Source of the DNA: Deltaproteobacteria bacterium
GTDB taxonomy: Bacteria; Desulfobacterota; Desulfobacteria; Desulfobacterales; C00003060
DNA length: 64,000 nucleotides
NCBI GenBank assembly: GCA_003647275.1
Contig: QMMN01000010.1
Location: 1,121-65,120, forward strand
Reading direction: 5' to 3'
Part shown: piece after piece, positions 1,014 through 46,276 of the stretch
How positions within the stretch are numbered: the first letter of the stretch is position 1
Layout: every line of letters starts with the position of its first letter
Notes under the pieces: generated by a model
What the model saw: only the letters and a program-made list of their open reading frames with translations
Told to the model about the DNA's origin: nothing
The model's database searches: none
Position numbers and translations under genes: made by a program

Positions 1014-2118
1014 ATGTCACTTGAATTAAAAAGCAGGATCCAATCTCTTCACAATCAACTAGAACAACTCAGGGGTTATCTTTGACATAGATGGAAAGCA
1101 AAAACGGCTTAACGAAATCGAGGCGATTATATCTAAAAAAGGCTTTTGGAATGTTCCAGAGGAAACAAAAGAAATCCTGAAAGAAAGAACGACCCTTTCC
1201 GATACAATTAATGCCTGGCAAAAGCTTCACCATGAACTCGAGGATGCTGGGGTCCTTTTAGACCTTGCCATAGAAGAGGCTGACGAAGCGACTATCCAGG
1301 AAGTCTCTGAAACACTTCAGGCGCTGGAAGATGCCATGAATCAAATGGCTATGGCGCGGATGCTAAGTGGCAAGGACGATGACAAAAATGCCATTGTCTC
1401 GATTAACGCCGGCGCAGGAGGGACTGAAGCTCAGGACTGGGCTGAGATGCTCTTCCGCATGTACGTGCGCTGGGCTGAGCGCAAAAACTACAAAACCAGC
1501 GTAGTGGACTTCCAGCCCGGTGAAGAAGCTGGGATCAAGAGTGTCACTTTTATCGCCAGTGGCCCCTATGCTTATGGTTATTTGAAAGGTGAGACCGGGA
1601 TCCATCGCCTTGTGCGTCTGTCCCCGTTCGATGCCAGTAATCGTCGACACACCTCCTTTGCGTCGGTCTCTGTGTCTCCGGAAGTCAACGAGGAGGTTGT
1701 CATAGACATTGACGAAAAGGACCTTCGCATTGAGACCTTCCGTTCCAGCGGTGCAGGCGGCCAGCACGTCAATAAGACCAGTTCAGCCGTCCGCCTCACA
1801 CATCTGCCAACAGGGATCGTGGTTCAGTGTCAGCAGGAATCTTCACAACACCGAAACAAGGCAATTGCCATGAAGGTCTTGAGGTCCCGGCTGTATGAAT
1901 ACGAACAATCGAAAAGGGCGAATGAAAAGCAAGCGCTTTATGAAAGCAAAGAAGAGATTGCCTGGGGGAGCCAGATCAGGTCCTATACCCTGCACCCTTA
2001 TCAGATGGTGAAAGACCATCGAATCAATCTTGAGATAGGAAACGTCAATGCTGTTCTGGATGGAAACCTCGATCTTTTTATAGAAGGGGTGCTTCTGGCA
2101 ACCAGTCAGCCCCATTAG
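1014..2118 (+). CDS. prfB: peptide chain release factor 2, requires programmed +1 frameshift at 1083
   Basis: ATG 1014 follows an AGGAGG RBS. Twenty-three codons (MSLELKSRIQSLHNQLEQLRGYL) end at the in-frame TGA 1083-1085. The +1 frame continues DIDGKQKRLNEIE... into ORF 1336..2118, which carries SPF and GGQ (SSGAGGQHVNK) motifs. Confidence 0.93.
1071..1086 (+). promoter_or_regulatory. RF2 autoregulatory +1 frameshift site (SD-like AGGGGT, then TAT CTT TGA C)
   Basis: The sequence AGGGGTTATCTTTGAC is almost identical to the E. coli prfB shift site AGGGGGTATCTTTGAC. Confidence 0.9.
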
Positions 2119-2200
2119 AAGCTCAAGAGGAACATTGTGACGCAATGCGATACAACGCTTAATAAGGAACCTCTAATAGGGGTAAAAAAAGGGAGGACTC

Positions 2201-2566
2201 ATGGCAAAGATATTGGTCGTTGATGACGAAAAAAGCATCAGGGCCCTTTGTAAAGAAGAACTGGAAGAGGAAGGTTACGAGGTCATCACAACTGGCCAAT
2301 GTAAAGATGTACTGGAACTCATTGCCTCTACCCGGCCATCTGCTGTGGTTTTGGACATCCGTATGGAGGATTGCAATGGGCTGGACCTGCTTCAGGAAGT
2401 ACGGAATGCCAACCCAACTCTGCCGATTATTCTCAACACGGCCTACGACTCATACAGTGAGGACATTAAATCCGTTGCTGCTGACTGTTACGTGGTCAAG
2501 TCCTATGACCTCTTAGAGCTGAAGGCCAAGATAGCTGAACTCGTGAATAAAGAAGGTCGGTCATGA
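2201..2566 (+). CDS. single-domain response regulator (CheY-like receiver)
   Basis: It starts MAKILVVDDE, has the LDIRM phospho-acceptor Asp context and a conserved Lys region (YVVKS). The GGGAGG RBS is present and the stop overlaps the glgP start (ATGA). Confidence 0.85.
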   Translation: MAKILVVDDEKSIRALCKEELEEEGYEVITTGQCKDVLELIASTRPSAVVLDIRMEDCNGLDLLQEVRNANPTLPIILNTAYDSYSEDIKSVAADCYVVKSYDLLELKAKIAELVNKEGRS

Positions 2567-5142
2567 AGGCCATATATAAGTATAACGTCCTTGCGAAGCT
2601 GCCAGACAGGCTAAAGCCCCTGGAAAGGCTCGCCTACAATTTATGGTTTAGTTGGCACCATGACATCGGCTACCTGTTCAGCCGGATGGACGCTGAGCTC
2701 TGGGAGTCTTCAAAACATAATCCCGTCTATATGCTGGGGGCCATCAGCCAAAAGCGCTTGGAGCAGCTGGCAGAAGATGCAGGCTTTTTGGCTCAGATGG
2801 ACCGGGTTTATGAACAGTTGGAACAGTACCTTTCCGTTCAACCCTCTCCGATCCCTGAAGCCCGGGATCTGGCTCGATTCGGTGTTGCCTATTTTTCGGC
2901 AGAGTTCGGCCTGGCCGAGTGTTTGCCTATTTATTCTGGAGGACTGGGCGTCCTTGCGGGTGACTACCTGAAATCTGCCAGCGACTTGAATTTTCCCGCC
3001 GTAGGTGTCGGCCTTTTTTACCACGAAGGCTATTTTCAGCAGTACTTGAATGCCGACGGGTGGCAGCAGGAAGCCTATCCTGAGAACGATATTTCCACCA
3101 TGCCGGCCAGTCTTATGACAGATGAAAATGGCCAACCGGTCATGGTGGAGGTATCTATACAGGGCGAACCCGTCAAAATTCAGATATGGCGCCTCATGGT
3201 AGGGCGTGTTCCCCTGTACTTGCTCGACACGAATATCAAGGAAAACTCGCCTGAGCATCGTTACATCACCTCGCGGCTTTATGGCGGAGACTGGGATATG
3301 CGACTCAGGCAAGAGATCGTCCTGGGCATTGGTGGCGTCCGCGCACTCCGGGCCCTCGGCGTAGAAGCCTCAGCATACCACATGAATGAAGGCCACTCTG
3401 CCTTTTCTGCCTTGGAACGAATCCGCATCCTCAAAAATGAGCATAGCCTGTCCTTTGATGCTGCAAGGGAATTCGTGGTCGCCACCAATACCTTTACGAC
3501 CCACACACCTGTGCCAGCGGGAAACGACATGTTTTCACCAGACCTTATGCACACATATTTCGAAGATTATGTGCAGTCTCTCGGCATTGCTTTTAAGGTT
3601 TTTTTGGGATTTGGCCGCCAGGAGCCTGGAAACGACCAGGAGACTTTTTCTATGACAGTGCTGGCCTTAAGGCTGTCTGCCCATTCGAATGGGGTAAGCC
3701 GATTACATGCCAGCGTTTCCCGCAACATGTGGCACAAAATCTGGCCCAAGAATCCTATGGAAGATATCCCTATCTACCCTATAACCAACGGGATTCACAT
3801 CCCATCGTGGATTTCGAAAGACATGGCAGAACTCTTTGATCGTTATCTGGGGCCAAACTGGATCGAAGATCCGGACAGCCAGAAGGTGTGGAAACAGGTG
3901 AAACAAATCCCAGATTCAGAACTATGGCGGACCCATGAAAGGCGGCGGGAACGCCTCGTCGCCTTTGCAAGACGAAGGCTGCAGACCCAGCTTAAAAGCC
4001 ATGGCGCATCAGCCCAAGAGCTTGAGACTGCCGCCCAGGTGCTCAATCCGGAAATTCTCACCATCGGATTCGGCCGTCGCTTTGCCAACTATAAACGCGC
4101 AACCCTTATCCTGCAGGACCAGGATCGGCTTGTTAAATTGCTGACCCATCCCGAACGTCCCATCCAGATTATTATAGCAGGTAAGGCCCATCCCCAGGAT
4201 GCCCCAGCCAAGGAGCTTATTAGAAGGATTATCCATTTTGCCAATCTGGAAGAGGTTCGCCATCGGTTTGTATTCATCCAGGACTACAATATCAGGGTGG
4301 CACGCATGATGCTTCAGGGCTGCGATGTGTGGATCAACACCCCCCGGAGGCCCCTGGAAGCGTGCGGTACCAGCGGCATGAAGGCCATCCCTAACGGCGT
4401 GTTAAACTTAAGCACCCTGGATGGATGGTGGGATGAAGGTTATGACCCAAGTTATGGATGGGCCATTGGTCGGGGTGAGACCTATGAAGATCATCACTTG
4501 CAAGACGAGGTGGAAAGCCGAGACATTTACAATCTCTTAGAACGAGAGATCGTACCGCTGTTTTATGACCGAGGCTTGGATAATCTGCCCCGTGGTTGGC
4601 TGGAAAAGATGAAGGCAGCCATGTGTTATCTTTGCCCGATTTTTAACTGCCACCGGATGCTACAGGACTACACCAATCAATGCTACATCAGTGCCTCAAG
4701 GCGATACAATGAGCTTTCAAGAGACGACATGAAGGGTGCCAACGAGCTGGCCCAGTGGCGACAAAAAATCTTGACCAACTGGGACCAGATTCGGATCAAT
4801 CGTATCCATGTGCACGGAGGCACACCTGTGCCGGTGTCGGGTTACCTCAAAATCGGGACCGATATCTTTCTCAATGAGCTTAAACCTGAAGACGTGGATG
4901 TGGATATCTATTTCGGACCATTGAGCTTTAAGGATGAGTTCACGGAAAGAGAGACTATCCAGATGAAAGCTGTGGATTCTGACGGCAATGGCAACCATCA
5001 TTTTGAGGGCGAGATACCATGTACCGAGACAGGCAAATACGGGTTTACTATCAGGGTCATGCCGAGTCGTCAAAAGATGGAAACCCCGTATACCACAGGT
5101 CTGGTGATCTGGGCACAGGACCAGGCCATTGTGAACCCGTAG
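2563..5142 (+). CDS. glgP: alpha-glucan phosphorylase (GT35, maltodextrin/glycogen phosphorylase type)
   Basis: An 859 aa ORF with the motifs YFSAEFGL, YSGGLGVLAGDYLKSASDL and EACGTSGMKA (PLP lysine context). Confidence 0.88.
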   Translation: MKAIYKYNVLAKLPDRLKPLERLAYNLWFSWHHDIGYLFSRMDAELWESSKHNPVYMLGAISQKRLEQLAEDAGFLAQMDRVYEQLEQYLSVQPSPIPEARDLARFGVAYFSAEFGLAECLPIYSGGLGVLAGDYLKSASDLNFPAVGVGLFYHEGYFQQYLNADGWQQEAYPENDISTMPASLMTDENGQPVMVEVSIQGEPVKIQIWRLMVGRVPLYLLDTNIKENSPEHRYITSRLYGGDWDMRLRQEIVLGIGGVRALRALGVEASAYHMNEGHSAFSALERIRILKNEHSLSFDAAREFVVATNTFTTHTPVPAGNDMFSPDLMHTYFEDYVQSLGIAFKVFLGFGRQEPGNDQETFSMTVLALRLSAHSNGVSRLHASVSRNMWHKIWPKNPMEDIPIYPITNGIHIPSWISKDMAELFDRYLGPNWIEDPDSQKVWKQVKQIPDSELWRTHERRRERLVAFARRRLQTQLKSHGASAQELETAAQVLNPEILTIGFGRRFANYKRATLILQDQDRLVKLLTHPERPIQIIIAGKAHPQDAPAKELIRRIIHFANLEEVRHRFVFIQDYNIRVARMMLQGCDVWINTPRRPLEACGTSGMKAIPNGVLNLSTLDGWWDEGYDPSYGWAIGRGETYEDHHLQDEVESRDIYNLLEREIVPLFYDRGLDNLPRGWLEKMKAAMCYLCPIFNCHRMLQDYTNQCYISASRRYNELSRDDMKGANELAQWRQKILTNWDQIRINRIHVHGGTPVPVSGYLKIGTDIFLNELKPEDVDVDIYFGPLSFKDEFTERETIQMKAVDSDGNGNHHFEGEIPCTETGKYGFTIRVMPSRQKMETPYTTGLVIWAQDQAIVNP

Positions 5143-5300
5143 CCCAGAGGAAAAGCCCCCTCCTCAACCCACAGAGGTCTCTAACGCATAAATCAGGCTT
5201 ATAGTGCTCTCTGTTCGTTGATACAAATGACTAAGGGGAGCATCAAATCGTTTACATCGAAACAGGCTGTTACCCAAGCAGCCGTACATTGAAACACCTT

Positions 5301-5316
5301 TGGATTATTTGTTGCA
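5301..5316 (+). promoter_or_regulatory. candidate sigma54 (-24/-12) promoter upstream of the fdhA-like gene
   Basis: TGGATTATTTGTTGCA has the GG and GC elements at the exact TGGCAC-N5-TTGCA spacing. It lies about 39 nt upstream of ATG 5355. The -24 hexamer is only a half match. Confidence 0.35.
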
Positions 5317-5354
5317 AACAATATGATGCTCTCCTTAGTACAAGGCGGTCAATC

Positions 5355-7388
5355 ATGCCCAAGGTTTTGACGACCTGCTGTTTTTGCGCCTGCGGGTGCA
5401 ACTTATATCTTCAGGTCGAAGCTGGAAAGGTCATTGGGGTGACCCCCAGCAGAGAACATCCCATTACCCGGGGAAACCTGTGTCTCAAGGGATGGAACAG
5501 CTTTGAGTTTGTCCATCACAAGGACCGTCTCCGATATCCATTGATTCGAAGAAGGGGCCACCTTGTAGAGGCGGATTGGGAAAAAGCGCTGAACTTGGTT
5601 GCACAAAGGCTGGCCGAGGTCAAGGACAAATATGGCCCCCAATCATTGGGGGTACTCTCTTCTGCCAAGTGTACCAATGAGGAGAACTATCTTCTAATGA
5701 AATTTGCGCGGGCCGTGCTGAAGACCAACAATGTGGACCACTGTGCCCGGCTATGTCATTCTCCAAGTGTCATTGGGCTAAGCAATGCCTTTGGTTCCGG
5801 GGCGATGACAAACGCCATATCAGAGCTTGCCAGCGCCGAGGTCATCTTGGTGACCGGCTCCAATACGACCGAGCAGCATCCCCAGATAGCACGGTTTATC
5901 TTTGATGCCCTGGCAAGAGGGGCCAAGCTGATTGTGGTGGACCCGCGACGTATTCCGTTGAGCAGATTCGCCCATATCTATCTGCAGCCACGCCTGGGGA
6001 CTGACGTGATATGGCTAAACGGCATGACGAAAATCATCCTGGAGGAGGGGCTCCTTGACGATGCCTTTATCAAGATGCGCACTGAAAATTTCAGGGCATT
6101 CAGCGAGATGCTGAAAAACTTTGACCTCGAGCAGGTGGAAGCCATCAGCGGGATCCCCCTGGAAGATCTCCGGATGGCAGCACGGGTGTATGCCGGTGTC
6201 AAGCGGGCCATGATCATTTATTCTATGGGGATTACGCAACACATCTCTGGAACGGATAATGTGCAATCCATTGCCAACCTGGCCATGTTGACCGGGCATG
6301 TGGAACAAAAGTATACCGGGGTCGGACCGCTCCGCGGCCAGAACAATGTCCAAGGGGCCTGTGACATGGGGGCACTTCCCGGAATGTTGTCAGGCTATCA
6401 AAATGTTGCAGACGAGGGCATCAGAAAAAAGTTTGAACGCGTATGGAAGACTGATCTGCCAACAGCCCCCGGTCTGACTGAGATTGATATGTTTCATGGA
6501 ACAGGGAATAAAAAAATTCGGGCGATGTTTGTTATGGGAGAAAATCCGGCACTCAGCCACCCTGATCTTAAAGCAACACGTGCCGCCTTACAAGTATTGG
6601 AATTTATGGCAGTATCAGATATCTTCCTGACAGAGACTGCAGCGTTGGCAGACGTGGTACTGCCTGCGGCTTCGTTTGCTGAAAAGAACGGAACCGTCAC
6701 CAGTACTGAACGCCGTATTCAAAGAGTTCGAAAGGCAGTGTCTCCTATTGGTGCAAGCAGGCCAGACTGGCAGATCATATGCGAACTGGCCTCTCGGATG
6801 AATTACCCCATGGCTTACGAATCCCCGGCAGAGATTATGGAAGAGATCGCCATGCTGACCCCCATTTACGGCGGCGTATATTACGATCGGCTGGAACAGG
6901 GGTGGGGGTTGTTTTGGCCGTGCCCGAACCGAGACCATCCGGGAACGCCCTTTTTGCACAAGGGTTCATTTGTACGCGGGAAGGGACGCTTTGAATGTAC
7001 TCTATATCGTCCTCCTGCAGAAATGCCGGATGAGGCGTATCCGTTTTATCTAACCACAGGACGGATCTCCGAACATTGGCATACGGGAAGTATGAGCAGG
7101 CGGATTACGGCCCTTTCCAGAGAACGGCCAGAGGCATTTGTTGAGATCAATCCACAGGATGCAAAGCGCTTGGGGGTGGCAAACAGGAAACCGGTTCGGG
7201 TCGTTTCAAGGCGCGGAGAAATTACAGTCAAGGCACGCCTTACAGACGATGTTCCAGAAAAAACGGTCTATATCCCTTTTCACTTCACAGAGGCTCCGGC
7301 CAATATCCTCACCCATGGTCACTGCGATCCAGAGGCCAAGATCCCGGAATTTAAGGTATGCGCGGTACGGTTGGAAAAGGTGCAGTGA
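5355..7388 (+). CDS. fdhA: formate dehydrogenase alpha subunit-like molybdopterin oxidoreductase (Cys type, no signal peptide)
   Basis: The N-terminal 4Fe-4S motif is CCFCACGC...CLKG. The fold is FdhF-like MopB, and ARLCHSPSV places Cys where Sec or Cys ligates Mo. The internal ATG 5355 (MPKVLTTCCF) is preferred over the TTG at 5289. Confidence 0.82.
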   Translation: MPKVLTTCCFCACGCNLYLQVEAGKVIGVTPSREHPITRGNLCLKGWNSFEFVHHKDRLRYPLIRRRGHLVEADWEKALNLVAQRLAEVKDKYGPQSLGVLSSAKCTNEENYLLMKFARAVLKTNNVDHCARLCHSPSVIGLSNAFGSGAMTNAISELASAEVILVTGSNTTEQHPQIARFIFDALARGAKLIVVDPRRIPLSRFAHIYLQPRLGTDVIWLNGMTKIILEEGLLDDAFIKMRTENFRAFSEMLKNFDLEQVEAISGIPLEDLRMAARVYAGVKRAMIIYSMGITQHISGTDNVQSIANLAMLTGHVEQKYTGVGPLRGQNNVQGACDMGALPGMLSGYQNVADEGIRKKFERVWKTDLPTAPGLTEIDMFHGTGNKKIRAMFVMGENPALSHPDLKATRAALQVLEFMAVSDIFLTETAALADVVLPAASFAEKNGTVTSTERRIQRVRKAVSPIGASRPDWQIICELASRMNYPMAYESPAEIMEEIAMLTPIYGGVYYDRLEQGWGLFWPCPNRDHPGTPFLHKGSFVRGKGRFECTLYRPPAEMPDEAYPFYLTTGRISEHWHTGSMSRRITALSRERPEAFVEINPQDAKRLGVANRKPVRVVSRRGEITVKARLTDDVPEKTVYIPFHFTEAPANILTHGHCDPEAKIPEFKVCAVRLEKVQ

Positions 7389-8644
7389 TGCCAAACGAGC
7401 TCATTCTAAACAAGGAACACCTTACAGGCTTTTTGCGCAAGATCGCAAAAGAACGTGAACTGATCGCGCCGATAAAAAATTCATATGGGGATACGCTCTT
7501 TGAAGTCATCTCCTCTGTGGATGATGTCTCTCTTGACCTGGAAAGCAGACCGGCCATGCCTCCCAAGGATTTCTTTTTACCTCCCACCGAGACACTGTTT
7601 AACTACCAGCGTGAAGGGAAACAATATCGGTTTGAGGAAGTTCTTCCTGATGTGTCAAGGGTCTTATTTGGTCTGCGTTCCTGCGATTTGTGGGCCATTC
7701 TGTTCCTTGACGTGGTATTCCAGGAAAACTTTAAAGACCGATACTATTTAAACAGACGAAGTAACACCATATTGATCAATATTGGGTGCCATGAACCGAT
7801 GCTGAACTGCTTTTGCAAAAGCGCAAAAAGCGGACCTTTTCTGACGCAAGGATACGATCTGCAGCTCACAGACCTGGGGGACCGATTTTTTGTCGAAGTC
7901 GGACGGCCCAGGGGCAGAGAGTTGGTTGACAAATGGGACTATTTTTTCACCTCGGCAACCCAAAAAGATCGGGACGAACAGTATGAGATCGTCCTGGAAG
8001 CGGAGAGCAAATTTGGGCAGACCGTTGATCTTGATATGGCAACCTCCCGACTCATCAATCATGAGGTGGACGACGCCCTGTGGGAGGAACTCGGGAACCG
8101 TTGCCAGGGGTGCGGGGGGTGTGCCTATGTATGCCCCACGTGTTACTGCTTTAATATTGTAGACCGGCCCGTGTCAGAAACTCAAGGGGAAAGGGTCAGA
8201 ATGCACGATGCGTGTACCTTGGCCGGATTTACCCGACTTGCGGGCGGTTACAATCCACGCCAGGAAAGAAGCCGTCGGATTCGAAGGCGCTTTTATCACA
8301 AACTCCCTTTTGCCATAGAGAAATACCATCGTCCCAGCTGCGTGGGATGCGGTCGGTGTATGGAAATATGCTTTGGCCGTGTTGATATGATTCACTTTAT
8401 CAAAATGGTTTGTGAGCGAGGTAAAAAAGCATCTCAAGAAGCCTCTTTGAGGTTAGGAGAAATTCTTGTCCAGGCTGGACTTATAAGCCGTGAAGAACTC
8501 AAGGTCGCCCTTGAGAAACAGGCTGACACCGGTAAGCCACTTGGCATACAGCTCATAGAAGACGGATTGACCACAACGAAAGAGATTGCCCTCGCCCTTG
8601 GTTGTCAACTGAGGATCCCGGAGACAGCGGGAACCGAGGGATAG
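7388..8644 (+). CDS. 4Fe-4S dicluster electron-transfer subunit (AsrA/HydB-like) with C-terminal MshEN/T2SSE_N-type domain
   Basis: TGATG overlap with fdhA. Cys clusters are CQGCGGCAYVCPTCYC and CVGCGRCMEIC. The C-terminus reads RLGEILVQAGLISREELKVALEKQ-ADTGK-PLGIQLIEDGLTTTKEIALALGCQ. Confidence 0.8.
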   Translation: MPNELILNKEHLTGFLRKIAKERELIAPIKNSYGDTLFEVISSVDDVSLDLESRPAMPPKDFFLPPTETLFNYQREGKQYRFEEVLPDVSRVLFGLRSCDLWAILFLDVVFQENFKDRYYLNRRSNTILINIGCHEPMLNCFCKSAKSGPFLTQGYDLQLTDLGDRFFVEVGRPRGRELVDKWDYFFTSATQKDRDEQYEIVLEAESKFGQTVDLDMATSRLINHEVDDALWEELGNRCQGCGGCAYVCPTCYCFNIVDRPVSETQGERVRMHDACTLAGFTRLAGGYNPRQERSRRIRRRFYHKLPFAIEKYHRPSCVGCGRCMEICFGRVDMIHFIKMVCERGKKASQEASLRLGEILVQAGLISREELKVALEKQADTGKPLGIQLIEDGLTTTKEIALALGCQLRIPETAGTEG

Positions 8645-10721: not shown

Positions 10722-11138
10722 CTACCCGTGCGCTTGATGAGATCCTCGATTCCTCATATAATCGTCCAGGGCCGCCTGTAAGGTCTCAGCAGCCAGGCTA
10801 GCACAATCCATATGGTCTCTGGGAAGACCACCCATGGATGCCTGGATAAGATCAGCGTCAATGGCCAGGATCTCATCCGGGGTTTTCCCCTTGGCAAGAT
10901 CTGCGGCAGCACAAACACAGTTTAGACTATAAACGCATCCATTGGTCTGGTAAGAGGTCTCTGCGACGCGATTTCCGGCAAATGTCAGGCGGATCTCCAT
11001 GGTGTCTCCACACCTTCCTGTCACACACGCTTTCCCGTCGGCCTTTTCTAAATGGGGATTCAGCCAGTAATAAACAAGAAACCATGCCACCACGATGACA
11101 ACAAGGACCCCGCCTGCAATAAGCATATTTGAGCACAT
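10722..11138 (-). CDS. membrane-anchored NifU/IscU-like Fe-S scaffold protein
   Basis: An N-terminal TM helix is followed by IscU-type motifs (CGDTMEI, NGCVYS, HMDCASLAAETL). ATG 11138 overlaps the apbE TAA by 1 nt; the longer ORF to 11198 would overlap apbE by 60 nt. Confidence 0.65.
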   Translation of the reverse strand: MCSNMLIAGGVLVVIVVAWFLVYYWLNPHLEKADGKACVTGRCGDTMEIRLTFAGNRVAETSYQTNGCVYSLNCVCAAADLAKGKTPDEILAIDADLIQASMGGLPRDHMDCASLAAETLQAALDDYMRNRGSHQAHG

Positions 11139-12178
11139 TAAGCCGAAGGCCACCCGTTCGACATAACTCTTGCCCCGGTGGAACTCAAGATCAGACATTC
11201 AGTCCCTGGCACATTTTCTATAAATTTCTTGCCCGCTAAGGGCCCTAAAACAAAACCTGTTGTGGAAAGGGCATCGGCATCCATCGTATTACCAGCCAGG
11301 ACGGTCACACTGGTGCTTTCAAGCGGCGAACGGCCTGTTTCCGGGTTTACAATATGATGGTATAGCTTTTCCTGATCAAAATAGACCTCGTAGTTACCGG
11401 AAGTGGCAATGGCGCCATTCACCATGGTGATGGTGTCAACATAGGGGCCTTCCTTATCGGGATTTTGAATCGCCACCTTCCACGGGATCCTGCTATCCTT
11501 ACCGCCAATGGCTCGAATATCCCCGCCAGCATTAATCAACGCATGTTTCATTCCATGTCGTTCGATCACCTTGGCTCCACAATCAATGATGTACCCCTTG
11601 GCGATTCCATCTAAGGTAACACCCATTCCGTCTTTGGCAAACCGAATGGTATGCCCATCGAACCGGATCTGACTGGCATCTACCAGGTCAAGGACCTTGG
11701 CTAATTCGGCCTCGGACGGAGGGGCCTGATGAGTCGCAAAGTGCGCCTTATAGAAATCAACCAGCGGCTTTACGGTGATGTCAAAGGCACCGTTGCTGGC
11801 CTTATGAAAATAGAGCGAACGGGCAATGACCTCTGACACTTCCAGGGGAAGGTCGGAGATATAGCCGTCCCGGTTGAGCATTCCAATGGCCGAAGCTGAC
11901 TGGTAACGATTCACCAACCGGGCAACCCGATCCATCTCTTCAAAGGCCATCCCGATCACCTCTTCGGCCTCGGCCTTTGAGGGGTGCATCACGGTAATCG
12001 CTGCAAAGGTCCCCATGGAAAGCCGCGCCCTGGTTACTTTATACAGTTTTCTGTTGAAGGCCACACTCTCTGAAACCGGCATCAAGCCACCAAAGGCAAA
12101 TCCCATACCAAGAATGCCTGAGTATTTCAGAAAGGTTCTTCGGTCCATGGTTCGATGGTTTTCTTCTTGAGCATACAT
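11138..12178 (-). CDS. apbE: FAD:protein FMN transferase (flavin-trafficking protein)
   Basis: Tat-type signal (DRRTFLKYSGILGMGFAFG) plus ApbE motifs (LDGIAKGY, ATSGNYE). A GGGGGA RBS precedes ATG 12178. Confidence 0.85.
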   Translation of the reverse strand: MYAQEENHRTMDRRTFLKYSGILGMGFAFGGLMPVSESVAFNRKLYKVTRARLSMGTFAAITVMHPSKAEAEEVIGMAFEEMDRVARLVNRYQSASAIGMLNRDGYISDLPLEVSEVIARSLYFHKASNGAFDITVKPLVDFYKAHFATHQAPPSEAELAKVLDLVDASQIRFDGHTIRFAKDGMGVTLDGIAKGYIIDCGAKVIERHGMKHALINAGGDIRAIGGKDSRIPWKVAIQNPDKEGPYVDTITMVNGAIATSGNYEVYFDQEKLYHHIVNPETGRSPLESTSVTVLAGNTMDADALSTTGFVLGPLAGKKFIENVPGTECLILSSTGARVMSNGWPSA

Positions 12179-12202
12179 AGATTATCCCCCACTTCGTAAC
12201 TG

Positions 12203-12317
12203 TTCAGGAGGTAAGGAATACTGCTGACAAGGATAACAGCATACCTCTTACGAAAGGCATTGGATGCCGGCGGGTCTGCTGCAGGCGGATTCCTTACCCC
12301 AGATACTGAACGATTAC
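12203..12317 (-). repeat. structured intercistronic repeat, type X, copy A (between rnfB and apbE)
   Basis: Four blocks are shared with 16966..17096 (22/25, 13/13, 14/15 and 25/27 nt). The GGGGTAAGGAAT and ATTCCTTACCTCC arms can pair. Confidence 0.75.
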
Positions 12318-12324
12318 CCCACTT

Positions 12325-13194
12325 TTAAGAAGCTACGGCTTCTTTTGCCTTTTCCATCCTTTCCTCAAGGTGGAATGGTTGCACGACATGGATTATATCG
12401 CAGGCCTCTATACAGATTTCCTTGCAAGCAGGTCCGTATTCCATGCATTTGTTCTGGTCGATGGTTACCACACCATCCACCTCAGAGATCGCATTGGCCG
12501 GGCATTCCCTGATGCAGGCCCCACAATGAATACACCCGTTCTCGCAGATGGTTCGCGTGACTTTACGGCTATCCTTGGTGCTGCACCGGATCAGTACCCG
12601 GGCGTTCCTGGGGACCAAGCTGATAATCCCTTTAGGGCAGGTCTTGACACATATGCCGCAGCCTACACAGAGATCTTTCGTGATAACCGGGAAATTGTCC
12701 ACCATGGTGATCGCGTCAAAGGGACAAGCTTTGGCACATTCCCCAAATCCAACGCAGCCGTACTGGCACTCCATGGGACCGGCAAAGGCCAGATCCGCTC
12801 CAGAGCACGCCCCATAGCCGATATAGTTATATTTTTTGTGTACGTGTCCCTGGACCCTGGAGCAGTGGACAGCGGCTACGAGGTCCTCGACGGCGCCTGG
12901 TTTCTTTCCCGTAATTTCAGCCACGGCATCAGCCACTTCCTTTTTGCCAGGAAAACAGAGATTTGGTGGAACATCTGGTTCGGTCACCACAGCTTCGGCG
13001 TATGCTTCACACCCGGGGAAGCCGCACCCGCCTCATTGCGCCCCGGCCAGGGTCTCCTTCACCTCTTCAATCTTGGGATTAATTTCCACCGCAAATTTAT
13101 GGGCGGCCAGGGCAAGCCCAATACCAAAGAACAGGCCGATAACGCCGAGGACGGTCAAGCCACCAAGGGCTAATTTGACTAATGCTGGATCCAT
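12325..13194 (-). CDS. rnfB: Rnf complex subunit B with in-frame TGA (13033-13035) at a conserved Cys position; putative selenoprotein
   Basis: ATG 13194 with a GGAAGGGA RBS opens MDPALVKLALGGLTVLGVIGLFFGIGLALAAHKFAVEINPKIEEVKETLAGAQ. This is followed by TGA and then, in frame, GGCGFPGCEAYAEAVVTEPD... running into ORF 12325..12990, which carries several 4Fe-4S ferredoxin motifs. Confidence 0.7.
12990..13024 (-). other. candidate bacterial SECIS-like hairpin downstream of the rnfB UGA
   Basis: An imperfect hairpin starts 9 nt after the UGA. The outer stem is CGGCUUC/GAAGCUG and the inner stem is GGGUGU/AUACGCC with a bulge, folded by eye. Confidence 0.3.
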
Positions 13195-13216
13195 ATACGT
13201 TCCCTTCCTTGTTTAA

Positions 13217-14176
13217 TCAGAAAATCGACATGCCTGAAAAGCCCAGAAAGGCCAGGGCGAAAAGCCCTGCCACGACAAAAGCAATGGGCAGCCCTCTGAA
13301 CGTGGGCGGCACATTAGCCAGTTCCAGCTTTTCCCGTACAGAGGACATCAAAAACAGTGCGATCAAAAATCCTGTCCCGGCTCCGAGGGAAAGCATTAAG
13401 CTCTCCCATGCATTGTATTCGTTGTCTGCCAGTATCAGGGGAACCGCTATGATGATGCAGTTTGCAATGACAAGGACAAGGTACACTCCAAACGCCTTAA
13501 ATAAGGCAGGGTTGACCTTCCTTAAGATGGTATCCACCGCCTGGACTGAAAGGGAAACCAGTCCGATAAAGACAACCACCTGTAAGAAGTCGAGGTGGTA
13601 GGGTTTCAGGACAAACTGGTAGAGAAACCACGACATCATGGAGGCAAAGACAATAACAATCGTAAAGGTTATGCCCATTCCGACAGCCGTTGTCTTCTTC
13701 TGAGAAGTGCCGAAAAACACGCAAAGGCCTAGATACTTGGTAAAGACAAAGTTATTAATGATCATTGCCCCGATTAGAATAGAAAAGAGATACCCAAAAT
13801 AGAGCTTCTTCACCGTTAGGATCGCTGTCCCCTGGGACCTTCCTGCAGACATCATTTCTGTGACGGTTAAGATATGGGCTTGGTCCTGGTTCAGAGCATC
13901 TTCAAAGGTCAGGGTTACCGTTCTCTTATCAGGGCTCAGGGCGATGTCGGTAATTTTCAACAGGATGTCCGGGTCTTGTTTTTCGTAAACCGAATAGTTG
14001 GCCACATCTTTTGCCCAGGTCTCATCTACAGGCCCTGCAAAGGTCATCACAACCTTGTTTTTGTCCTTGAACGCGACCTTTTTGACAAAACGATGTTCTG
14101 TTGCACATCCGGTTAAAAGGAGTACCCATATAAAGAACGTACACACCAGTATATGATGCCGTCTATCCATTCTCAT
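13217..14176 (-). CDS. rnfA: Rnf complex subunit A with an N-terminal lipoprotein-type extension of about 125 aa
   Basis: The C-terminal 190 aa or so is canonical RnfA (INNFVFTKYLGLCVFFG..., AFVVAGLFALAFLGF). The N-terminus has a signal plus lipobox (LLLTGC) and a beta-rich domain. ATGA overlap with rnfE. Confidence 0.8.
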   Translation of the reverse strand: MRMDRRHHILVCTFFIWVLLLTGCATEHRFVKKVAFKDKNKVVMTFAGPVDETWAKDVANYSVYEKQDPDILLKITDIALSPDKRTVTLTFEDALNQDQAHILTVTEMMSAGRSQGTAILTVKKLYFGYLFSILIGAMIINNFVFTKYLGLCVFFGTSQKKTTAVGMGITFTIVIVFASMMSWFLYQFVLKPYHLDFLQVVVFIGLVSLSVQAVDTILRKVNPALFKAFGVYLVLVIANCIIIAVPLILADNEYNAWESLMLSLGAGTGFLIALFLMSSVREKLELANVPPTFRGLPIAFVVAGLFALAFLGFSGMSIF

Positions 14177-14793
14177 AACCCTTTTTTCCTTCGGTTATAA
14201 ACGACTTCTATATAGTTGAACATCGCCATCATGAGGCCAACCAAAAAGAACCCTGCGGCCGGGAGGGCAAAGAAAAGGAGCGGTCGGAAACCGAGGATAT
14301 CATACCCTAAGAGCGTGCCCATCCCCAAAAGCTCCCGGACAAAACCGAGGGTCATCATCGCAAACATAAACCCGAGTCCCATGCCAAGACCGTCCCAGAA
14401 GGAGGCGGTGACCGTATTCTTGCAGGCAAACATCTCCAAACGCATGGTAATAATCGCAAAGGCTACGATTAACTTTACAAAGATACCCATGGCCTTATAT
14501 GCCACCGGGACATAGGCGGCCAAAACCAGGTCGATCACCGTGACCCATGTGGCGATGGTCAGCGTATAAGTGGGGATCCGGATACGGGGGTGAATGTAAT
14601 CCTTAATGAGTGCGATGGTACAACTCGAAAAAACCTGTACGAAAAGGACGGCGATCCCAAGGAGGAGGCCGTTCATAACGCTTGTGCTGATCCCCACAGC
14701 CGGGCACATCGAAAGGGCCAAACGGAAGATCGGGTTCTCATTTAGGATGCCGTTAACAAACAGTTCTTTGTTCGTCTTAGTTGTAGGTGCCAA
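14173..14793 (-). CDS. rnfE: Rnf complex subunit E
   Basis: RnfE/NqrD family (NGILNENPIFRLALSMCPAVGIST). TTG 14793 with an AGGGAG RBS is preferred; the GTG-initiated ORF to 14847 would run into a repeat element. Confidence 0.8.
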   Translation of the reverse strand: MAPTTKTNKELFVNGILNENPIFRLALSMCPAVGISTSVMNGLLLGIAVLFVQVFSSCTIALIKDYIHPRIRIPTYTLTIATWVTVIDLVLAAYVPVAYKAMGIFVKLIVAFAIITMRLEMFACKNTVTASFWDGLGMGLGFMFAMMTLGFVRELLGMGTLLGYDILGFRPLLFFALPAAGFFLVGLMMAMFNYIEVVYNRRKKGL

Positions 14794-14822
14794 TCTCTTT
14801 CTCCCTGCACGAAGTCTACGTT

Positions 14823-14950
14823 GTGAAGCCTCCCTGTGTTTCTGCACAGGGGCCCTGCCTTACGGCAGTGCTTTGGCGTCCGGGGAGCAAGCCGGTCAAA
14901 ACTGATAGGCCTTTCGGTTCGCAGAGGCGTGAGTCACCCCGGACAGTGAA
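14823..14950. repeat. hairpin-rich intergenic repeat, type Y, copy 1 (between rnfG and rnfE)
   Basis: GTGAAGCC, then hairpin CCCTGTG/CACAGGG, then CTGCC-TTAC-GGCAG, then GCGTCCGGGGAGCAAGCCGGTCAA. This is shared with 49053.., 51587.. and, inverted, 26533... Confidence 0.7.
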
Positions 14951-14959
14951 ACCTTTATA

Positions 14960-15874
14960 CTAAAAGGTTACTGCAATATGTTGACTTGCGATCACCTTGT
15001 TCAGCTTACCCATGCGGTATGCAAACTTTTTTATGATATTTTTAACACCATTTGTCACCGACCTACTGGAGATGGTCGCCCCGGTTAGGGCATAGATATC
15101 ATGGTCTTGATATTTGCTCCGTATGCTTTCAATCTCTTGTTCGGAAAACATGCCTTTTTTCCATTTCTTTGTCTCCAGGTATCTTTTATACTTATCCGGG
15201 AGGGGTTCCTTGATAACTTTGAGCCTCTTCACCTTCTCAAAGGACTTTCCTTTAAACTGATTCTTAAAATATTCCTGTTCGATCTCAGCACCCAGCCCTG
15301 GGTCTTCCTCGTGTTCCATGATCTCCAGGCCAAGGATTTTGAAGTTTGGATCCAAGGCCAACATGACCGAGATGAATGTCTTGAAACCAGGAAATTCACC
15401 AGGAAGCAGGTAGGCCAATTGCTTATCCCCCAGCCTGGCAATGATCGTGGTATCAGCGTAGGTAAAGGTCTTTGGATGCCTTAGCACTGTTTTCAAGGCC
15501 GTCTCACGTTCTCCTTCTTCAATAGCTGCTTCGGGTGAGATGGGCACCTCAAGCTTCTCTACGAATTTCCCTGCCAGGTTAATCACCACCAACTCGTAAC
15601 CCTCTGTAGCCCCCTTTTTTACGGGGACCATGTATCCGATGTACTTCGCCTCTCCATCTTCAATAATATAGCGGTATACGCTATGAAACCTAAGGTCTGA
15701 AGGAGCGGGATTGGCCTTGGTGTATCCCAGCAAAGCAAGCATGGTCTCCTGCACATTTAGATGTTCGTTGTGCTTCTTAGCTTTGGCAGTTATGGTAAAG
15801 ACCAGCCCCATGATTGAACCAGCAATCAGACAAGAAATGGTCAGGCCTATGGTAATTCGTAGGATCTGCTTCAT
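14960..15874 (-). CDS. rnfG: Rnf complex subunit G (FMN-binding), longer than usual (304 aa)
   Basis: N-terminal TM helix and the FMN_bind motif ALTGATISSRSV. ATGA overlap with rnfD. Confidence 0.82.
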   Translation of the reverse strand: MKQILRITIGLTISCLIAGSIMGLVFTITAKAKKHNEHLNVQETMLALLGYTKANPAPSDLRFHSVYRYIIEDGEAKYIGYMVPVKKGATEGYELVVINLAGKFVEKLEVPISPEAAIEEGERETALKTVLRHPKTFTYADTTIIARLGDKQLAYLLPGEFPGFKTFISVMLALDPNFKILGLEIMEHEEDPGLGAEIEQEYFKNQFKGKSFEKVKRLKVIKEPLPDKYKRYLETKKWKKGMFSEQEIESIRSKYQDHDIYALTGATISSRSVTNGVKNIIKKFAYRMGKLNKVIASQHIAVTF

Positions 15875-16938
15875 TTTTGAGCACCTTCTTGTGGTTGCGG
15901 GGCAAAACGTCTGGGTTTAAACCATTGGTCTATGGCAGGCGTCAGGGTGTTCATCAGCAAGATGGCATAACAAACCCCTTCCGGATAGCCTCCCTTCAAC
16001 CGGATCAGAACGGTCAGGGCGCCGATCCCGGCTCCAAAGAATAATTGGCCTGCCTTCTGGTTGGGAGATGTGACGTAATCGGTGGCCATGAAAAAGGCTC
16101 CCAGTATCACGCCTCCTGACAGCACAGCCAACAAGGGGTTGCCTGTAAAGAGTTTTTCACCGCCGAAAACCCAGGTAAAAAAACCAACAGACACAATGAC
16201 TGATACCGGGATATGCCAGGTGATGTATTTCTTATAAATCAGAAAAAGTCCGCCAATAATAAGCAAAAAGGCGGAAGTCTCACCAATACAGCCGGGTCTC
16301 CAACCAATAAAGAAATTGCCGTAGATAGAAGCCAATGACCCAAATTTTTCAATCACCGCCCCAATGCCGTAATGCTTTAGGACATAAAGCGGCGTGGCGG
16401 TCGTGATGGCATCAACCCCGGTTCCCATGTATTTGAAAATCGAGGCGTCCCGAATGGGTAGGAGCCAGGCCGACGTCATGGCCACCGGATATGTGGCAAC
16501 CAGAAAGGCCCGACCAATAAGGGCAGGATTGAATATGTTAAATCCAATGCCACCCATGAGAACCTTTGTCACAAAGATGGCCATGACCGCACCCAGGATA
16601 GGCATCCAGTAGGGCACGCCAGGCGGGATGATGTAGGCCAGCAGGACCCCTGTAATCACTGCGCTGCCATCTTTGACTGTAACAGGACGATGCAAAAGCT
16701 TCTGAGATATCGCCTCGGTTGCAACGCAGCTTGCCACACTGATGACAGTGATGATTAGCGTTTGGAAACCAAAGATGAAAACAGACAAAATAAGCGGCGG
16801 CATCAAGCAGGCCACAACCGTCCACATGATCTTGTTAATGGTTTCCGCGCTTTTGACATGCGGCGAAACCGACACAAACAAGCGAGCTGGCTTCTCTACT
16901 TCTGTTATAGCGGTTGTTTCAGTTTGTGTTTCCACCAT
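15871..16938 (-). CDS. rnfD: Rnf complex subunit D
   Basis: Polytopic NqrB/RnfD family protein (GGVILGAFFMATDYVTSP) with an AGAGGA RBS. Confidence 0.88.
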   Translation of the reverse strand: MVETQTETTAITEVEKPARLFVSVSPHVKSAETINKIMWTVVACLMPPLILSVFIFGFQTLIITVISVASCVATEAISQKLLHRPVTVKDGSAVITGVLLAYIIPPGVPYWMPILGAVMAIFVTKVLMGGIGFNIFNPALIGRAFLVATYPVAMTSAWLLPIRDASIFKYMGTGVDAITTATPLYVLKHYGIGAVIEKFGSLASIYGNFFIGWRPGCIGETSAFLLIIGGLFLIYKKYITWHIPVSVIVSVGFFTWVFGGEKLFTGNPLLAVLSGGVILGAFFMATDYVTSPNQKAGQLFFGAGIGALTVLIRLKGGYPEGVCYAILLMNTLTPAIDQWFKPRRFAPQPQEGAQK

Positions 16939-16965
16939 CCTGGTCCTCTTGTTATTTCATAGCTC

Positions 16966-17096
16966 TTCAGGGAGTAAGGAATACCGCTGAACGTAGGCAT
17001 CCAGTCCCATTTCCAGCAAGGATAACAGCCCAGCGACTAAAGACATTGGATGCTGAGGAGAAGTGGTTGTCCTTACCCCAGATGCTAAACGATTAC
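16966..17096 (-). repeat. structured intercistronic repeat, type X, copy B (between rnfC and rnfD)
   Basis: Homologous to 12203..12317 and begins 1 nt after the rnfC stop. It carries a 25-nt insertion that can pair internally (GCATCCA/TGGATGC). Confidence 0.75.
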
Positions 17097-17097
17097 G

Positions 17098-18519
17098 TTA
17101 TTTCTTTTTGGATTCCCTGATCTTCATCTTGGCCAGCCTTATAAATTGCACCAAAGGCCTCTTTGCGGGGCACACAAAGGCGCACGAGCCACACTCAAAA
17201 CAATCATCAATGCCAAATTGTTCTGTCTCGGCACCACGTCCTGCCTCCACATAGATGCCAATATTGTTTGGCTCAAGCCCCATGGGACAGGCCTCAAGGC
17301 AAAATCCGCATCGAATACAAGGATAATAAGACTCGGTGTCGACCTCATCTTTTGTGAGGAAAAGCACCCCCGAGGTGGTCTTGGTTATGGGGATATCGAA
17401 GGTGGAGACCGAAAATCCCATCATTGGGCCGCCGATGACTACCTTGACAAGGTCTGGCGTGGTTCCCCCTAAATAGTCCACGATATCGGCAAGGCTTGTT
17501 CCCACCTTCACCATGAGATTTGCTGGCCGCTTGATCCCCTTGCCAGCAATGGTGACCACTCTTTCGTAAAATGGTTTACCAAAAGCGACCGCATCGTAAA
17601 TCGCCTTTGTGGTGTATACGTTTTGAACAATGATACCAATTGCTGAGGAGCGCGCACCTGCAGGCCGCACCCGGCCGGTTAGACTCTGCATGATCTGGTC
17701 TGCAGACCCCTGAGGATATTTGACTTTAAGGGGCTTTACAGCAATTTTGTAACCATTTTTCGACGTGTCTTGAGCAATGGCCCGATTTAAAGCCTCTATG
17801 GCATCGGGCTTGTTGTTCTCAATGCCAATGGCGCAATAGTCGATGCCAAGAATCTTCAAAATGATCTTGGCCCCTTCGATAATATCATGGGGATGTTCGA
17901 CCATGATGCGGTGATCACTGGTCAGATATGGCTCACACTCCGCTCCATTCAATATCAGGGTATCGACCTTGACATCTGGCCCAAGGGTAAGTTTAGCATG
18001 AGCAGGGAACCCGGCACCGCCCAACCCAACGATTCCAGCATCTTTGATCCTGGCAATAAGCTCTTCTCTGGAAAACTTCTTCCAGTCTACCGAAGAATAC
18101 GACCTTGGCTCCGCCTCTGGATCCGCAGAAATTACCAGGGCAGGCGCCTTTCCCACCATGGGATGCTGGACATTCTCAACACCCTCCAGCGTACCGCTCA
18201 AACTGGCATGGAGGTTTGCACCCAGGCCCTTCTCAACGGATCCGACTAGATCCCCCTCGAAGACCTTGTCCTTTTTCTTGACCAAAAGCTGGTAGAGATC
18301 CCCTGCATGTCGCTTCAAAAAAAGACGCTCCTCTGAAGGCGTCGTCATGACCCTTTTCTTGACCGAAACTCGGCAGGGCGCTCCTGCGTGTTGCTTCAAA
18401 AATAGGCGCACTTGCGAGGGAGGCGGCATGACCTCCACAGGAAGCTTTTCGGTCAGTTCCTTGGATTCTTTGGGGTGGATGCCCCCTTTTGGGAATGTCG
18501 CCAATGTCTCAGCAGCCAT
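17098..18519 (-). CDS. rnfC: Rnf complex subunit C
   Basis: GLGGAGFPAHAK and two 4Fe-4S motifs (CIRCGFCLEACP, CFECGSCAFVCP), with an AGGGAGAG RBS. The N-terminus contains a tandem duplication of about 26 aa. Confidence 0.88.
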   Translation of the reverse strand: MAAETLATFPKGGIHPKESKELTEKLPVEVMPPPSQVRLFLKQHAGAPCRVSVKKRVMTTPSEERLFLKRHAGDLYQLLVKKKDKVFEGDLVGSVEKGLGANLHASLSGTLEGVENVQHPMVGKAPALVISADPEAEPRSYSSVDWKKFSREELIARIKDAGIVGLGGAGFPAHAKLTLGPDVKVDTLILNGAECEPYLTSDHRIMVEHPHDIIEGAKIILKILGIDYCAIGIENNKPDAIEALNRAIAQDTSKNGYKIAVKPLKVKYPQGSADQIMQSLTGRVRPAGARSSAIGIIVQNVYTTKAIYDAVAFGKPFYERVVTIAGKGIKRPANLMVKVGTSLADIVDYLGGTTPDLVKVVIGGPMMGFSVSTFDIPITKTTSGVLFLTKDEVDTESYYPCIRCGFCLEACPMGLEPNNIGIYVEAGRGAETEQFGIDDCFECGSCAFVCPAKRPLVQFIRLAKMKIRESKKK

Positions 18520-22697: not shown

Positions 22698-24713
22698 TTG
22701 AGACGATTTCAGATAAAATTTGGCTTTCGAGGCAAGGTCTATGTCGGTACTATCTCTATAGTTCTACTATCCGGGTTTTTGATCGCCTTGTCTGTGAGCA
22801 CAATCGTGTCAGATGTATTATCAAAAGAGTTCAAAAACAGAGGGATATCCATTGCTATAAACCTTGCTGCACGAAGTGAGGAGCCAATCTTGGCCATGGA
22901 TTTCCTTCGCATGAAAGACTTGATTGATGAAGGGGTTAGATCAAGCGATGATATTTCATACGCATTTACCCTTGATCAAAACGGGGAAGTCCTCAGTCAT
23001 ACCTTTGAGGGAGGGTTTCCTGTTGAACTGAAGACAGCAAACAGGGTTTCTGAAGGTCAAGACTACAATATCAAGCTTTTGGACACAGGAAAAGATCTAA
23101 TTTATGATTTTGCCGCGCCTGTGTTTGTAGGGAATCATAGGCTTGGAACCGTACGGATAGGTCTTTCAAGGACAAAAGTTAAAGAGACCATCAATGATCT
23201 CTTATCGACGATTCTCGTATTAATGGGATTATCGATACTGATAGCAGGTCTTGCCGGGGCAGGCTTTGCAGATCAGGTCACAAGACGGATCAAGAAATTG
23301 CATTGGGCATCAGAAGAGGCATTAAGGGGTAATTTAGATGTCCAAGCAGCCCCCCTGTTGAAAAAAAACTGTTGGGAAATCATGAACTGCAACAATGAGG
23401 CATGTCCGGCCTATGGTGAAAGGCACAGGCGTTGCTGGTATGTTGCTGGCACGATGTGTCCAGAGTGTGTTGATGGTGAATATGTAAAAAAGATTGAAAA
23501 CTGTAGGAGCTGTCGAGTTTATAGGAGGAACTCAGGGGATGAAATCCAGCATTTGGCCGAATCCTTTGATGCCATGACACAGTCCCTCAAAGATCACATA
23601 ACCCGAGTGGAAGAATCAAAAGAAGCCATAGAAAAATCGGGGAGGAAATATCGACGTATCTTTGAAGGTTCTATGGACTTTATTTTTGTAGCTGATAACA
23701 AAGGCAATTTTTTGGACATCAATCAAGCTGGCTTGGCCCTGTTGGGCTATGATTCCAAGGAGGCATTCCTTGGAACGGTCAATTTAGGTGATATCCTTGT
23801 CGAACCTGAGCGTATCGAGTCCTTGTTTGAAGAAATTGCCTCCAAAGGGTTCATCAAAGACATGGAATGCACCCTGAGGGCCAGGGATGGTCGTGAGCTT
23901 CAGGTTCTGTTTAGCAGTACGGCCCATAGGGACGAAACAGGTCAGATTATCAGCTACGAAGGGATTATTAAGGATATAACGCAGCGAAGGAATATAAAGC
24001 GGCAATTGTTACAGGCGGATAAGCTGGCATCTATCGGACAGCTTTCAGCTGGTGTGGCTCACGAAATCAATAACCCGCTGGGCTTGATTCTGGGTTATAC
24101 CCAGCTTTTAATTCGCGGAGAGCCCGAAGGATCCGAGAAATATGAGGATTTGAAAAGGATCGAAAAGCATGGACGCAACTGCAAAAGAATCGTGGAGGCC
24201 CTCATTAGCTTTGCCAGGAGAACGGAAACCAAGATGGTCATGATAGACATCAACCAGACGATTCAAGAGGTCATTGCTGTTGTCAGGCATCAATTTGAAC
24301 TCGACAACGTGCGGATTGAGACCGTCTTTGATGAGGCCATACCACCTTTTGGAGGGGACAGCGATAAACTCAAGCAGGTTTTTATGAATCTTCTTATGAA
24401 TGCCAATCAGGCTATTTCGGATTCAGGTCATATCACGATTTCCACCAAGTTTGTTCGGGGACAAGAGGAGGTCCGTATCATCGTTGAGGATACGGGCTCC
24501 GGGATTCCACCAGAGATTATCGACAAGATATTTGATCCCTTCTTTACCACGAAGCCAACGGGCCAGGGAACAGGCCTTGGTCTTTCGGTGAGCTACGGGA
24601 TCGTTAAAGAGCACAATGGTGACATCTTGGTTCACAGTGAACCGGGCAGGGGGGCAATTTTTACGGTTGTTCTCCCTGTGTGTCGAGTTGAAGAAGATGG
24701 AGTCGCTCATTAG
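22698..24713 (+). CDS. sensor histidine kinase: 2 TM + periplasmic domain, HAMP, Cys-rich two-CW module, PAS, HisKA, HATPase
   Basis: TTG start. Motifs are [34 protein letters not shown]...CRSCRVYRR, the H-box [10 protein letters not shown], and the N/G boxes NLLMNANQA and DTGSGI...GTGLGLS. Confidence 0.85.
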
Positions 24714-26532: not shown

Positions 26533-26578
26533 CCGCGAAGCACTGCCGTCAGGCAGAACCTGCGGGGTTAGCGGCCGC
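26533..26578. repeat. type Y repeat, partial copy in inverted orientation
   Basis: CGCGAAGCACTGCCGTCAGGCAGAACCTGCGG aligns with the reverse complement of 51700-51730 (CGCAAAGCGCTGCCGTAAGGCAGAACCCCCG). Confidence 0.55.
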
Positions 26579-46214: not shown

Positions 46215-46221
46215 CAAGGAA

Positions 46222-46257: not shown

Positions 46258-46276
46258 AGGGCCAAGGAGGTGGATC

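Follow-up and report, generated by a model that had tools for sequence, protein, structure and literature searches.

The Correia elements (CREE) of Neisseria are about 104-157 bp long, have inverted termini, are often co-transcribed and form an RNA hairpin; in mtrCDE transcripts, RNase III cleaves at their inverted repeats (PMC10969869). The ERIC or IRU sequences of Enterobacteriaceae, found in intergenic regions that are transcribed, are imperfect palindromes about 127 bp long and can change mRNA decay through RNase E sites (PMC3184786). Two segments in the rnf operon of an uncultured Desulfobacterales bacterium resemble both. They lie on contig QMMN01000010.1 (assembly GCA_003647275.1) in a window of 64,000 nucleotides, the whole stretch of DNA that was analysed. 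Judged from their sequence, they are very probably two independent insertions of a miniature, non-coding transposable element with inverted repeats (a MITE) of about 123-139 bp. Correia elements differ from them in having a TA duplication, IHF sites, promoters and more than 100 copies, none of which is found here. ERIC is flanked by TA and is unrelated in sequence, whereas the duplication here is 7-8 bp.

Chunjie, a MITE from Geobacter uraniireducens Rf4, is also found in a former 'Deltaproteobacteria' host. As summarised in PMC10969869 (from Chen et al. 2008, PMC2516098), it likewise has inverted termini and direct repeats and varies in size by internal indels. In that summary it is 178-235 bp long and has dozens of genomic copies, whereas only two copies, with IS66-like termini, are found here; the sequences seem unrelated.

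The defining features of the IS66 family of insertion sequences (IS) are direct repeats of 8 bp and inverted repeats that start with GTAAGCG and are 20-30 bp long (PMC11946415); GTAAGCGTCCGG and GTAACCGTCCGG are further examples of its ends (PMC12888890). ISDge4, with a single open reading frame (ORF) and of the ISBst12 group, has ends GTAACTGCTCAGCA and an 8-bp repeat (PMC12898284). An IS66-like element on Geobacillus kaustophilus plasmid pHTA426 (locus L139) encodes a transposase that matches DDE_Tnp_IS66 (1.9e-64) and zf-IS66 in Pfam; read directly, its ends are GTATCTATTCAGCCC / GTAACTATTCAGCCC and its 8-bp flanking duplication is GACGAGTT. The segments described here share with ISDge4 and the pHTA426 element termini that start GTAA and continue ..CTGTTCAG, and an 8-bp target duplication. 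In contrast to these two, which are autonomous, 1.6 kb long and encode DDE_Tnp_IS66 transposase, they have no transposase.

The two copies, their terminal inverted repeats and their putative target-site duplications are as follows.

12195..12317, minus strand: putative MITE copy A, 123 bp (122-123 bp, with a 1-nt ambiguity at each end, by a 7- or 8-bp duplication); homology to copy B begins and ends here
12289..12317, minus strand: copy A, terminal inverted repeat on the 5' side of the transcript (sense), GTAATCGTTCAGTATCTGGGGTAAGGAAT; the predicted fold has 24 base pairs between the arms
12196..12221, plus strand: copy A, other terminal inverted repeat, read outward-in, GTAACTGTTCAGGAGGTAAGGAATAC; 11/12 identical to the end of the pHTA426 element
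12318..12324: copy A, upstream target-site duplication, CCCACTT on the plus strand and AAGTGGG as read in sense; directly adjoins the rnfB stop codon; 8 bp long with 12317
12188..12194: copy A, downstream target-site duplication, CCCACTT, 8 bp long with 12187; the apbE ribosome-binding site GGGGGA comes next
16959..17096, minus strand: putative MITE copy B in the rnfC-rnfD spacer, 138 bp long, or 139 bp with 16958; compared with copy A, it has 26 nt inserted internally
17068..17096, minus strand: copy B, 5' (sense) terminal inverted repeat GTAATCGTTTAGCATCTGGGGTAAGGACA
16959..16984, plus strand: copy B, other terminal inverted repeat ATAGCTCTTCAGGGAGTAAGGAATAC; degenerate tip, with ATAG for GTAA
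17097..17104: copy B, upstream target-site duplication, GTTATTTC on the plus strand and GAAATAAC as read in sense; includes the stop codon of rnfC
16951..16958: copy B, downstream target-site duplication, GTTATTTC, followed by the rnfD ribosome-binding site AAGAGGA

An initial annotation, made from the sequence alone, had described one structured element, in the same orientation, in the rnfB-apbE and rnfC-rnfD gaps. Global alignment of the two copies agrees: 91 of 112 aligned positions are identical (81%) and there are three indels (8, 3 and 26 nt); not one of 2000 shuffles scores as high. The four shared blocks that it listed, with identities of 22/25, 13/13, 14/15 and 25/27, can all be read off the sequence and the alignments, as can the start of each copy 1-7 nt past the upstream stop codon; the internal blocks GCATCCAATG and GCTGTTATCCTTG are shared in addition to the arms. 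The limits given there (12203..12317 and 16966..17096) are too short; the arms reach further outward, and the real extents are 12195-12317 and 16958/9-17096.

The arms continue as far as GTAATCGTTCAG...CTGAACAGTTAC, so that the terminal inverted repeats are about 26-29 nt long in both copies. At the tips of the four ends, GTAATCG occurs twice, GTAACTG once and the degenerate ATAGCTC once; three of the four thus begin GTAA. The copy A sequence GTAACTGTTCAGGA is identical to the ISDge4 end at 12 of 14 positions, and the copy A end GTAACTGTTCAG matches that of the pHTA426 element at 11 of 12. This likeness is confined to the outer 12-14 nt. The duplication has the 8-bp length typical of IS66 in copy B (8/8) and, depending on the boundary, 8/8 or 7/8 in copy A. 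From these termini, the ends are probably of the IS66/ISBst12 type.

A direct repeat of 7-8 bp, of which the initial annotation took no account, stands on both sides of each copy. In the direction of transcription, with slashes at the junctions, copy A reads AAGTGGG / GTAATCGTTCAGTATCTGGGGTAAGGAAT...ATTCCTTACCTCCTGAACAGTTACG / AAGTGGG and copy B reads GAAATAAC / GTAATCGTTTAGCATCTGGGGTAAGGACA...GTATTCCTTACTCCCTGAAGAGCTAT / GAAATAAC; with a 1-nt shift, the 8-bp form of the copy A duplication is CCCCACTT. The direct repeats sit exactly at the limits of homology between the copies, and the inverted repeats reach the same points. In the window, exact repeats at the given spacing occur at about 1 in 10,000 positions for 7-mers and about 2 in 100,000 for 8-mers; the probability of chance occurrence at both copies is negligible. 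The alternative that one gap acquired its copy from the other by segmental duplication or gene conversion was also considered and is rejected, as each flanking repeat matches its own target and not that of the other copy.

The inverted termini, together with a different target-site duplication for each copy, point to transposition by a DDE transposase. Six-frame translations of the copies contain no conserved ORF, and the indels shift the frame so that the copies have no reading frame in common. Gene callers placed no ORFs over the elements on the identical public contigs. At 123 and 138-139 bp, both are within the size range of MITEs (under about 300 bp); the transposition signature and the lack of coding capacity would place them in this class. 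Since the copies are only 81% identical, neither is a recent derivative of the other. This identity, with the intact duplications, suggests that the two derive from members of a larger family that had diverged beforehand, and that neither arose by copying of the other.

Relatives with the same operon were compared at both junctions. These relatives are distant: their RnfC proteins are 73-75% identical to that of the window, and the nearest RnfC among 5.8 billion proteins is 75% identical. In four loci with the same synteny (L008-L011), rnfC and rnfD overlap by 20 nt and rnfB and apbE are 44-51 nt apart; in L140 (GCA_013375375.1), 17 nt separate rnfC from rnfD. In L008-L012, blastn finds no trace of the element, and the element is absent from the L140 junction, which was read directly. 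On their sequence, the five loci L008-L011 and L140 are empty sites.

An empty-site junction is one in which the target sequence, AAGTGGGG or GAAATAAC, is present once. Deletion of copy B and one duplicate in silico leaves ...AGGGAATCCAAAAAGAAATAAC / AAGAGGACCAGGATG, which aligns base by base with the uninterrupted ...AGGGAATCCAAGAAAAAGTAG-CAACTAAGAGGAACGGA-ATG of L140. The C-terminus of RnfC, ...IRESKKK*, is the same in the window and in relative P0007. Deletion of copy A and one duplicate leaves TAA-AAGTGGGGGATAATCT-ATG, and the ribosome-binding region GRGGATAATNT(T)ATG is common to this junction, L008 and L010.

Two of the relatives' loci have other features. In Desulfonema magnum (L012, CP061800.1, 11428-21428), genes for a molybdenum-containing oxidoreductase, a Fer4_11 protein and RnfC are followed by AAA_14, PLD-SNF2 helicase, ParE toxin and Eco57I-type methyltransferase/restriction genes, with no rnfD next; this is either a defence-island-like insertion at the same rnfC 3' junction or a stand-alone rnfC paralogue. 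L140 contains a second, divergent rnf/nqr-like cluster (581-7453), and a cytochrome c3 gene lies directly upstream of, and divergent from, its homologous rnfC operon.

The insertions can be pictured as follows. A transposase that acts in trans and is, or formerly was, provided by another part of the genome, and whose identity we infer, would recognise the GTAA(YY)GTTCAG termini. An 8-bp staggered cut in the target followed by insertion would leave the 8 bp duplicated on both sides. The insertion point would have been the rnfC stop codon for one copy and, for the other, the position directly past the rnfB stop codon. Because the target is duplicated, the stop codon is kept upstream and the ribosome-binding site and ATG are kept downstream. 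The operon would still be read through, and rnf mRNA would carry the element as a long imperfect hairpin. The elements are almost certainly co-transcribed with the operon, as passengers, and the insertions would be near-neutral.

These insertions account for the unusually long intercistronic gaps in this rnf operon, and show a route by which an insertion may survive in an essential operon, namely by falling into the short interval that separates a stop codon from the following ribosome-binding site. For this uncultured Desulfobacterales lineage, they document a MITE whose ends are of the IS66/ISBst12 type.

A number of observations weigh against two MITE insertions. The right tip of copy B is degenerate (ATAG), the copy A duplication is 8/8 or 7/8 by a 1-nt choice of boundary, and identity between the copies is only 81%. 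The known copies number only two, both in one operon, 4.6 kb apart and in the same orientation relative to transcription. No third copy is found within the 64-kb window by arm patterns that allow 2-3 mismatches, by blastn (word size 7) or by tiled local alignment. Pfam on 20 proteins of the window and tblastn on all loci reveal no IS66-type transposase in the window or the fetched loci, nor is a cognate full-length IS with matching inner inverted repeats found in the window or fetched loci. No insertion polymorphism is seen across the four samples with the locus. An exact left-arm pattern (19 specified bases) has no match in genome contigs, where the source organism's contigs are evidently absent or masked, and three in metagenome contigs, all coincidences in coding sequence without a second arm. 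A 14-mer scan of viral contigs, for which the query was a poor choice, gives 120 chance matches, none with the rest of the element; blastn against plasmids gives two weak partial matches in coding genes (E=5) and no copy.

The scans of the collections do not return the window's own two copies, so the source contigs are evidently not in these collections or are masked in them, and the zero counts are therefore uninformative on the rest of the source genome. A genome-contig scan with a second, unrelated repeat family finds other Desulfobacteria metagenome-assembled genomes (MAGs) and not the source, with no MITE copies among them. Extension past the window through the proteins at its ends adds about 1.9 kb of new sequence. 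Within the window, the initial annotation had suggested a possible weak third match at about 49231-49260; this is at noise level, as 76-100 of 300 shuffles attain its local alignment score of 12 and no blastn match falls there. A 19-mer match at 2391-2409 is rejected as a further copy; it is part of a coding ORF, and no partner arm accompanies it.

The transcribed element is predicted to form an interrupted hairpin of 20-24 bp, and the downstream ribosome-binding sites fall outside it. The arm pairing proposed in the initial annotation is seen in the predicted folds, as is the GCAUCCA/UGGAUGC helix peculiar to copy B. The interior folds differ between the copies because the 26-nt insertion in copy B makes its own helix. 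No promoter-like or terminator-like site is found in either element, including no terminator on the minus strand; an intrinsic terminator would be a GC-rich hairpin with a U-run behind it in sense, and the tails here are GAAGUGGGGG and GAAAUAACAAG.

Among explanations at the RNA level, the one that survives best is that the element has been domesticated as a cis-acting RNA, its hairpin kept by selection as an RNase III/RNase E site or as a barrier to 3'-exonucleases, and that it uncouples RnfC from RnfDGEA and RnfB from ApbE. This is unlikely. Both copies are in the sense orientation, 1-7 nt past a stop codon, with the next ribosome-binding site free, as a functional RNA might be; against this, the shared orientation of two copies is a 1-in-2 event, and location in a post-stop spacer is expected anyway from survivorship in an essential operon. 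With n=2, orientation and position carry little weight. The stem of 20-24 base pairs favours such a role. Against it, folding of the whole gaps in the sense direction is no better than that of shuffles, with z-scores of only -1.2 and -0.8, and is somewhat better antisense (-2.2 and -2.8), and the interiors fold differently.

The differences in the 3' arm are compatible with G-U pairing on the sense strand, and the initial annotation noted that they keep the pairing. The wobble-compatible differences are present. Arm duplex energies show no consistent sense preference (-29.1 kcal/mol sense vs -25.6 kcal/mol antisense in copy A; -24.0 vs -26.2 kcal/mol in copy B). Since the arms pair about equally on both strands, the G-U wobbles are not evidence for selection at the RNA level. 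The sequences are fixed, being 100% identical in all four public assemblies or samples that carry the locus, which would suit a domesticated RNA; relatives, on the other hand, manage without the element. Cleavage of Correia by RNase III at its inverted repeats (PMC10969869) and creation of RNase E sites by ERIC (PMC3184786) are precedents for such a role.

A hairpin effect on mRNA decay is possible; if the hairpin alters decay or processing, this would be incidental, as described for ERIC and Correia elements. It is doubtful that the hairpins of the MITE have been co-opted, by being cleaved or by blocking exonucleases, to give unequal RnfC, RnfDGEA-B and ApbE from one rnf transcript. If they have, then together with the unrelated hairpin repeat between rnfG and rnfE, the subunit stoichiometry of the Rnf complex would be set by captured mobile repeats. 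If the hairpins did affect mRNA decay, the locus would be a natural experiment on Rnf subunit stoichiometry.

A structured non-coding RNA family (a protein-binding RNA, riboswitch-like leader or small RNA) duplicated within the operon is very improbable. The internal blocks GCATCCAATG and GCTGTTATCCTTG are shared as well as the arms, which such a family would explain; the 8- and 26-nt indels nevertheless alter the interior fold. Neither element has an Rfam match at the gathering threshold or even at E<=5, there is no promoter or terminator, and the element is not found at the orthologous sites or in the other sequences searched. Target-site duplications are unexpected for an RNA gene.

REPs are GC-rich palindromes of 20-40 nt without target duplication. 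A REP/BIME-type repeat, another non-transposon dispersed palindrome or a chance resemblance is the least credible explanation of all: the genome does have a separate GC-rich hairpin repeat family with one member in the rnfG-rnfE spacer, whereas the element here is 123-139 bp long with inverted termini of 26-29 nt and flanking duplications, and chance resemblance is excluded by the alignment score (0/2000 shuffles).

Of the three readings offered in the initial annotation, the MITE-like insertion is therefore upheld, by the inverted repeats, the per-copy duplications, the empty sites and the IS66-type ends; the processing or stability signal and the protein-binding RNA have no positive support. 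The two segments are an ordinary kind of mobile DNA, and there is no evidence for a dedicated regulatory RNA. Inverted termini and target duplications should be checked before hairpins within operons are called regulatory RNAs.

The genes of the operon, all on the minus strand and as named in the initial annotation, are identified by Pfam.

Minus strand: molybdopterin oxidoreductase, Fer4_11 protein, rnfC, rnfD, rnfG, rnfE, rnfA, a small ORF, rnfB, apbE and nifU, one operon by Pfam and gene calls on identical public contigs
17098-18519, minus strand: rnfC, upstream of copy B; stop codon 17098-17100
15871-16938, minus strand: rnfD, downstream of copy B; ATG 16936-16938
14960-15874, minus strand: rnfG
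14173-~14793, minus strand: rnfE
13217-14176, minus strand: rnfA
12325-12990, minus strand: rnfB (iron-sulfur subunit), upstream of copy A; stop codon 12325-12327
11138-12178, minus strand: apbE (flavin transferase), downstream of copy A; ATG 12176-12178

The rnfB-apbE gap is 146 nt (12179-12324) and the rnfC-rnfD gap is 159 nt (16939-17097). Gaps of 140-160 nt had been called unusual within rnf operons, which is true among the relatives examined (-20 to +17 nt for rnfC-rnfD and 44-51 nt for rnfB-apbE). A third spacer, between rnfG and rnfE, is also enlarged, at about 110-165 nt depending on the rnfE start, compared with 55 nt in L140 and 30 nt in L008. This is accounted for by the second repeat family, which is unrelated to the MITE; three spacers of the rnf operon are thus colonised by repeats.

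Members of the second repeat family are about 70-80 nt long and are found at the following positions.

14823-14899: window, rnfG-rnfE spacer
51592-51621: window
51692-51750: window
49087-49113: window
26534-26560, minus strand: window
3084-3150: locus L134
1653-1728: locus L137
863-928: locus L138

The consensus of this family is GTGAAGCC-[CCCCGCCC TTCC GGGCGGGG]-GTT-[CTGCC TTRC GGCAG]-...GCGTCCGGGGAGCAWGCCGGTCAA, with two GC-rich hairpins. It is 82-87% conserved between the window and the three other loci, which belong to two other Desulfobacteria MAGs and in which it lies outside rnf and away from tRNAs. In the window, the copies at 51592-51621 and 51692-51750 adjoin two tRNA genes (51828-51980). 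The first hairpin has compensatory changes, with 4 of 20 pairs altered on both sides. The family has no inverted termini, no target duplication and no Rfam match.

The rnfC gene itself contains an 81-nt tandem duplication, 72% identical, at 18267-18428 on the minus strand. This corresponds to two 27-aa units in the N-terminus of RnfC (RLFLKQHAGAPCRVSVKKRV... / RLFLKRHAGDLYQLLVKKKD...). Relatives P0005 and P0018 have the duplication, while others lack it (P0007, 445 aa), so this is a protein duplication of old date that is lineage-specific.

Other features of the window lie outside the rnf operon. An inverted repeat (23059-23623 vs 38427-38991, 71-72% identical) represents two paralogous sCache_3_2/PAS histidine-kinase genes on opposite strands (22698-24713, plus; 37274-39346, minus). 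Between a flagellar gene and an HU/IHF-like gene (50437-50715), about 2 kb (~48300-50400) has no ORF of more than 95 aa on either strand; this region contains one partial copy of the second repeat family, and its only Rfam match is a sub-threshold one to rseX (E 0.39). A c-di-GMP-I riboswitch (46119-46208, plus strand; 73.6 bits, E 1.5e-12) lies directly upstream of a FliD-like flagellar cap gene (46181-47551) and overlaps the start of its longest ORF.

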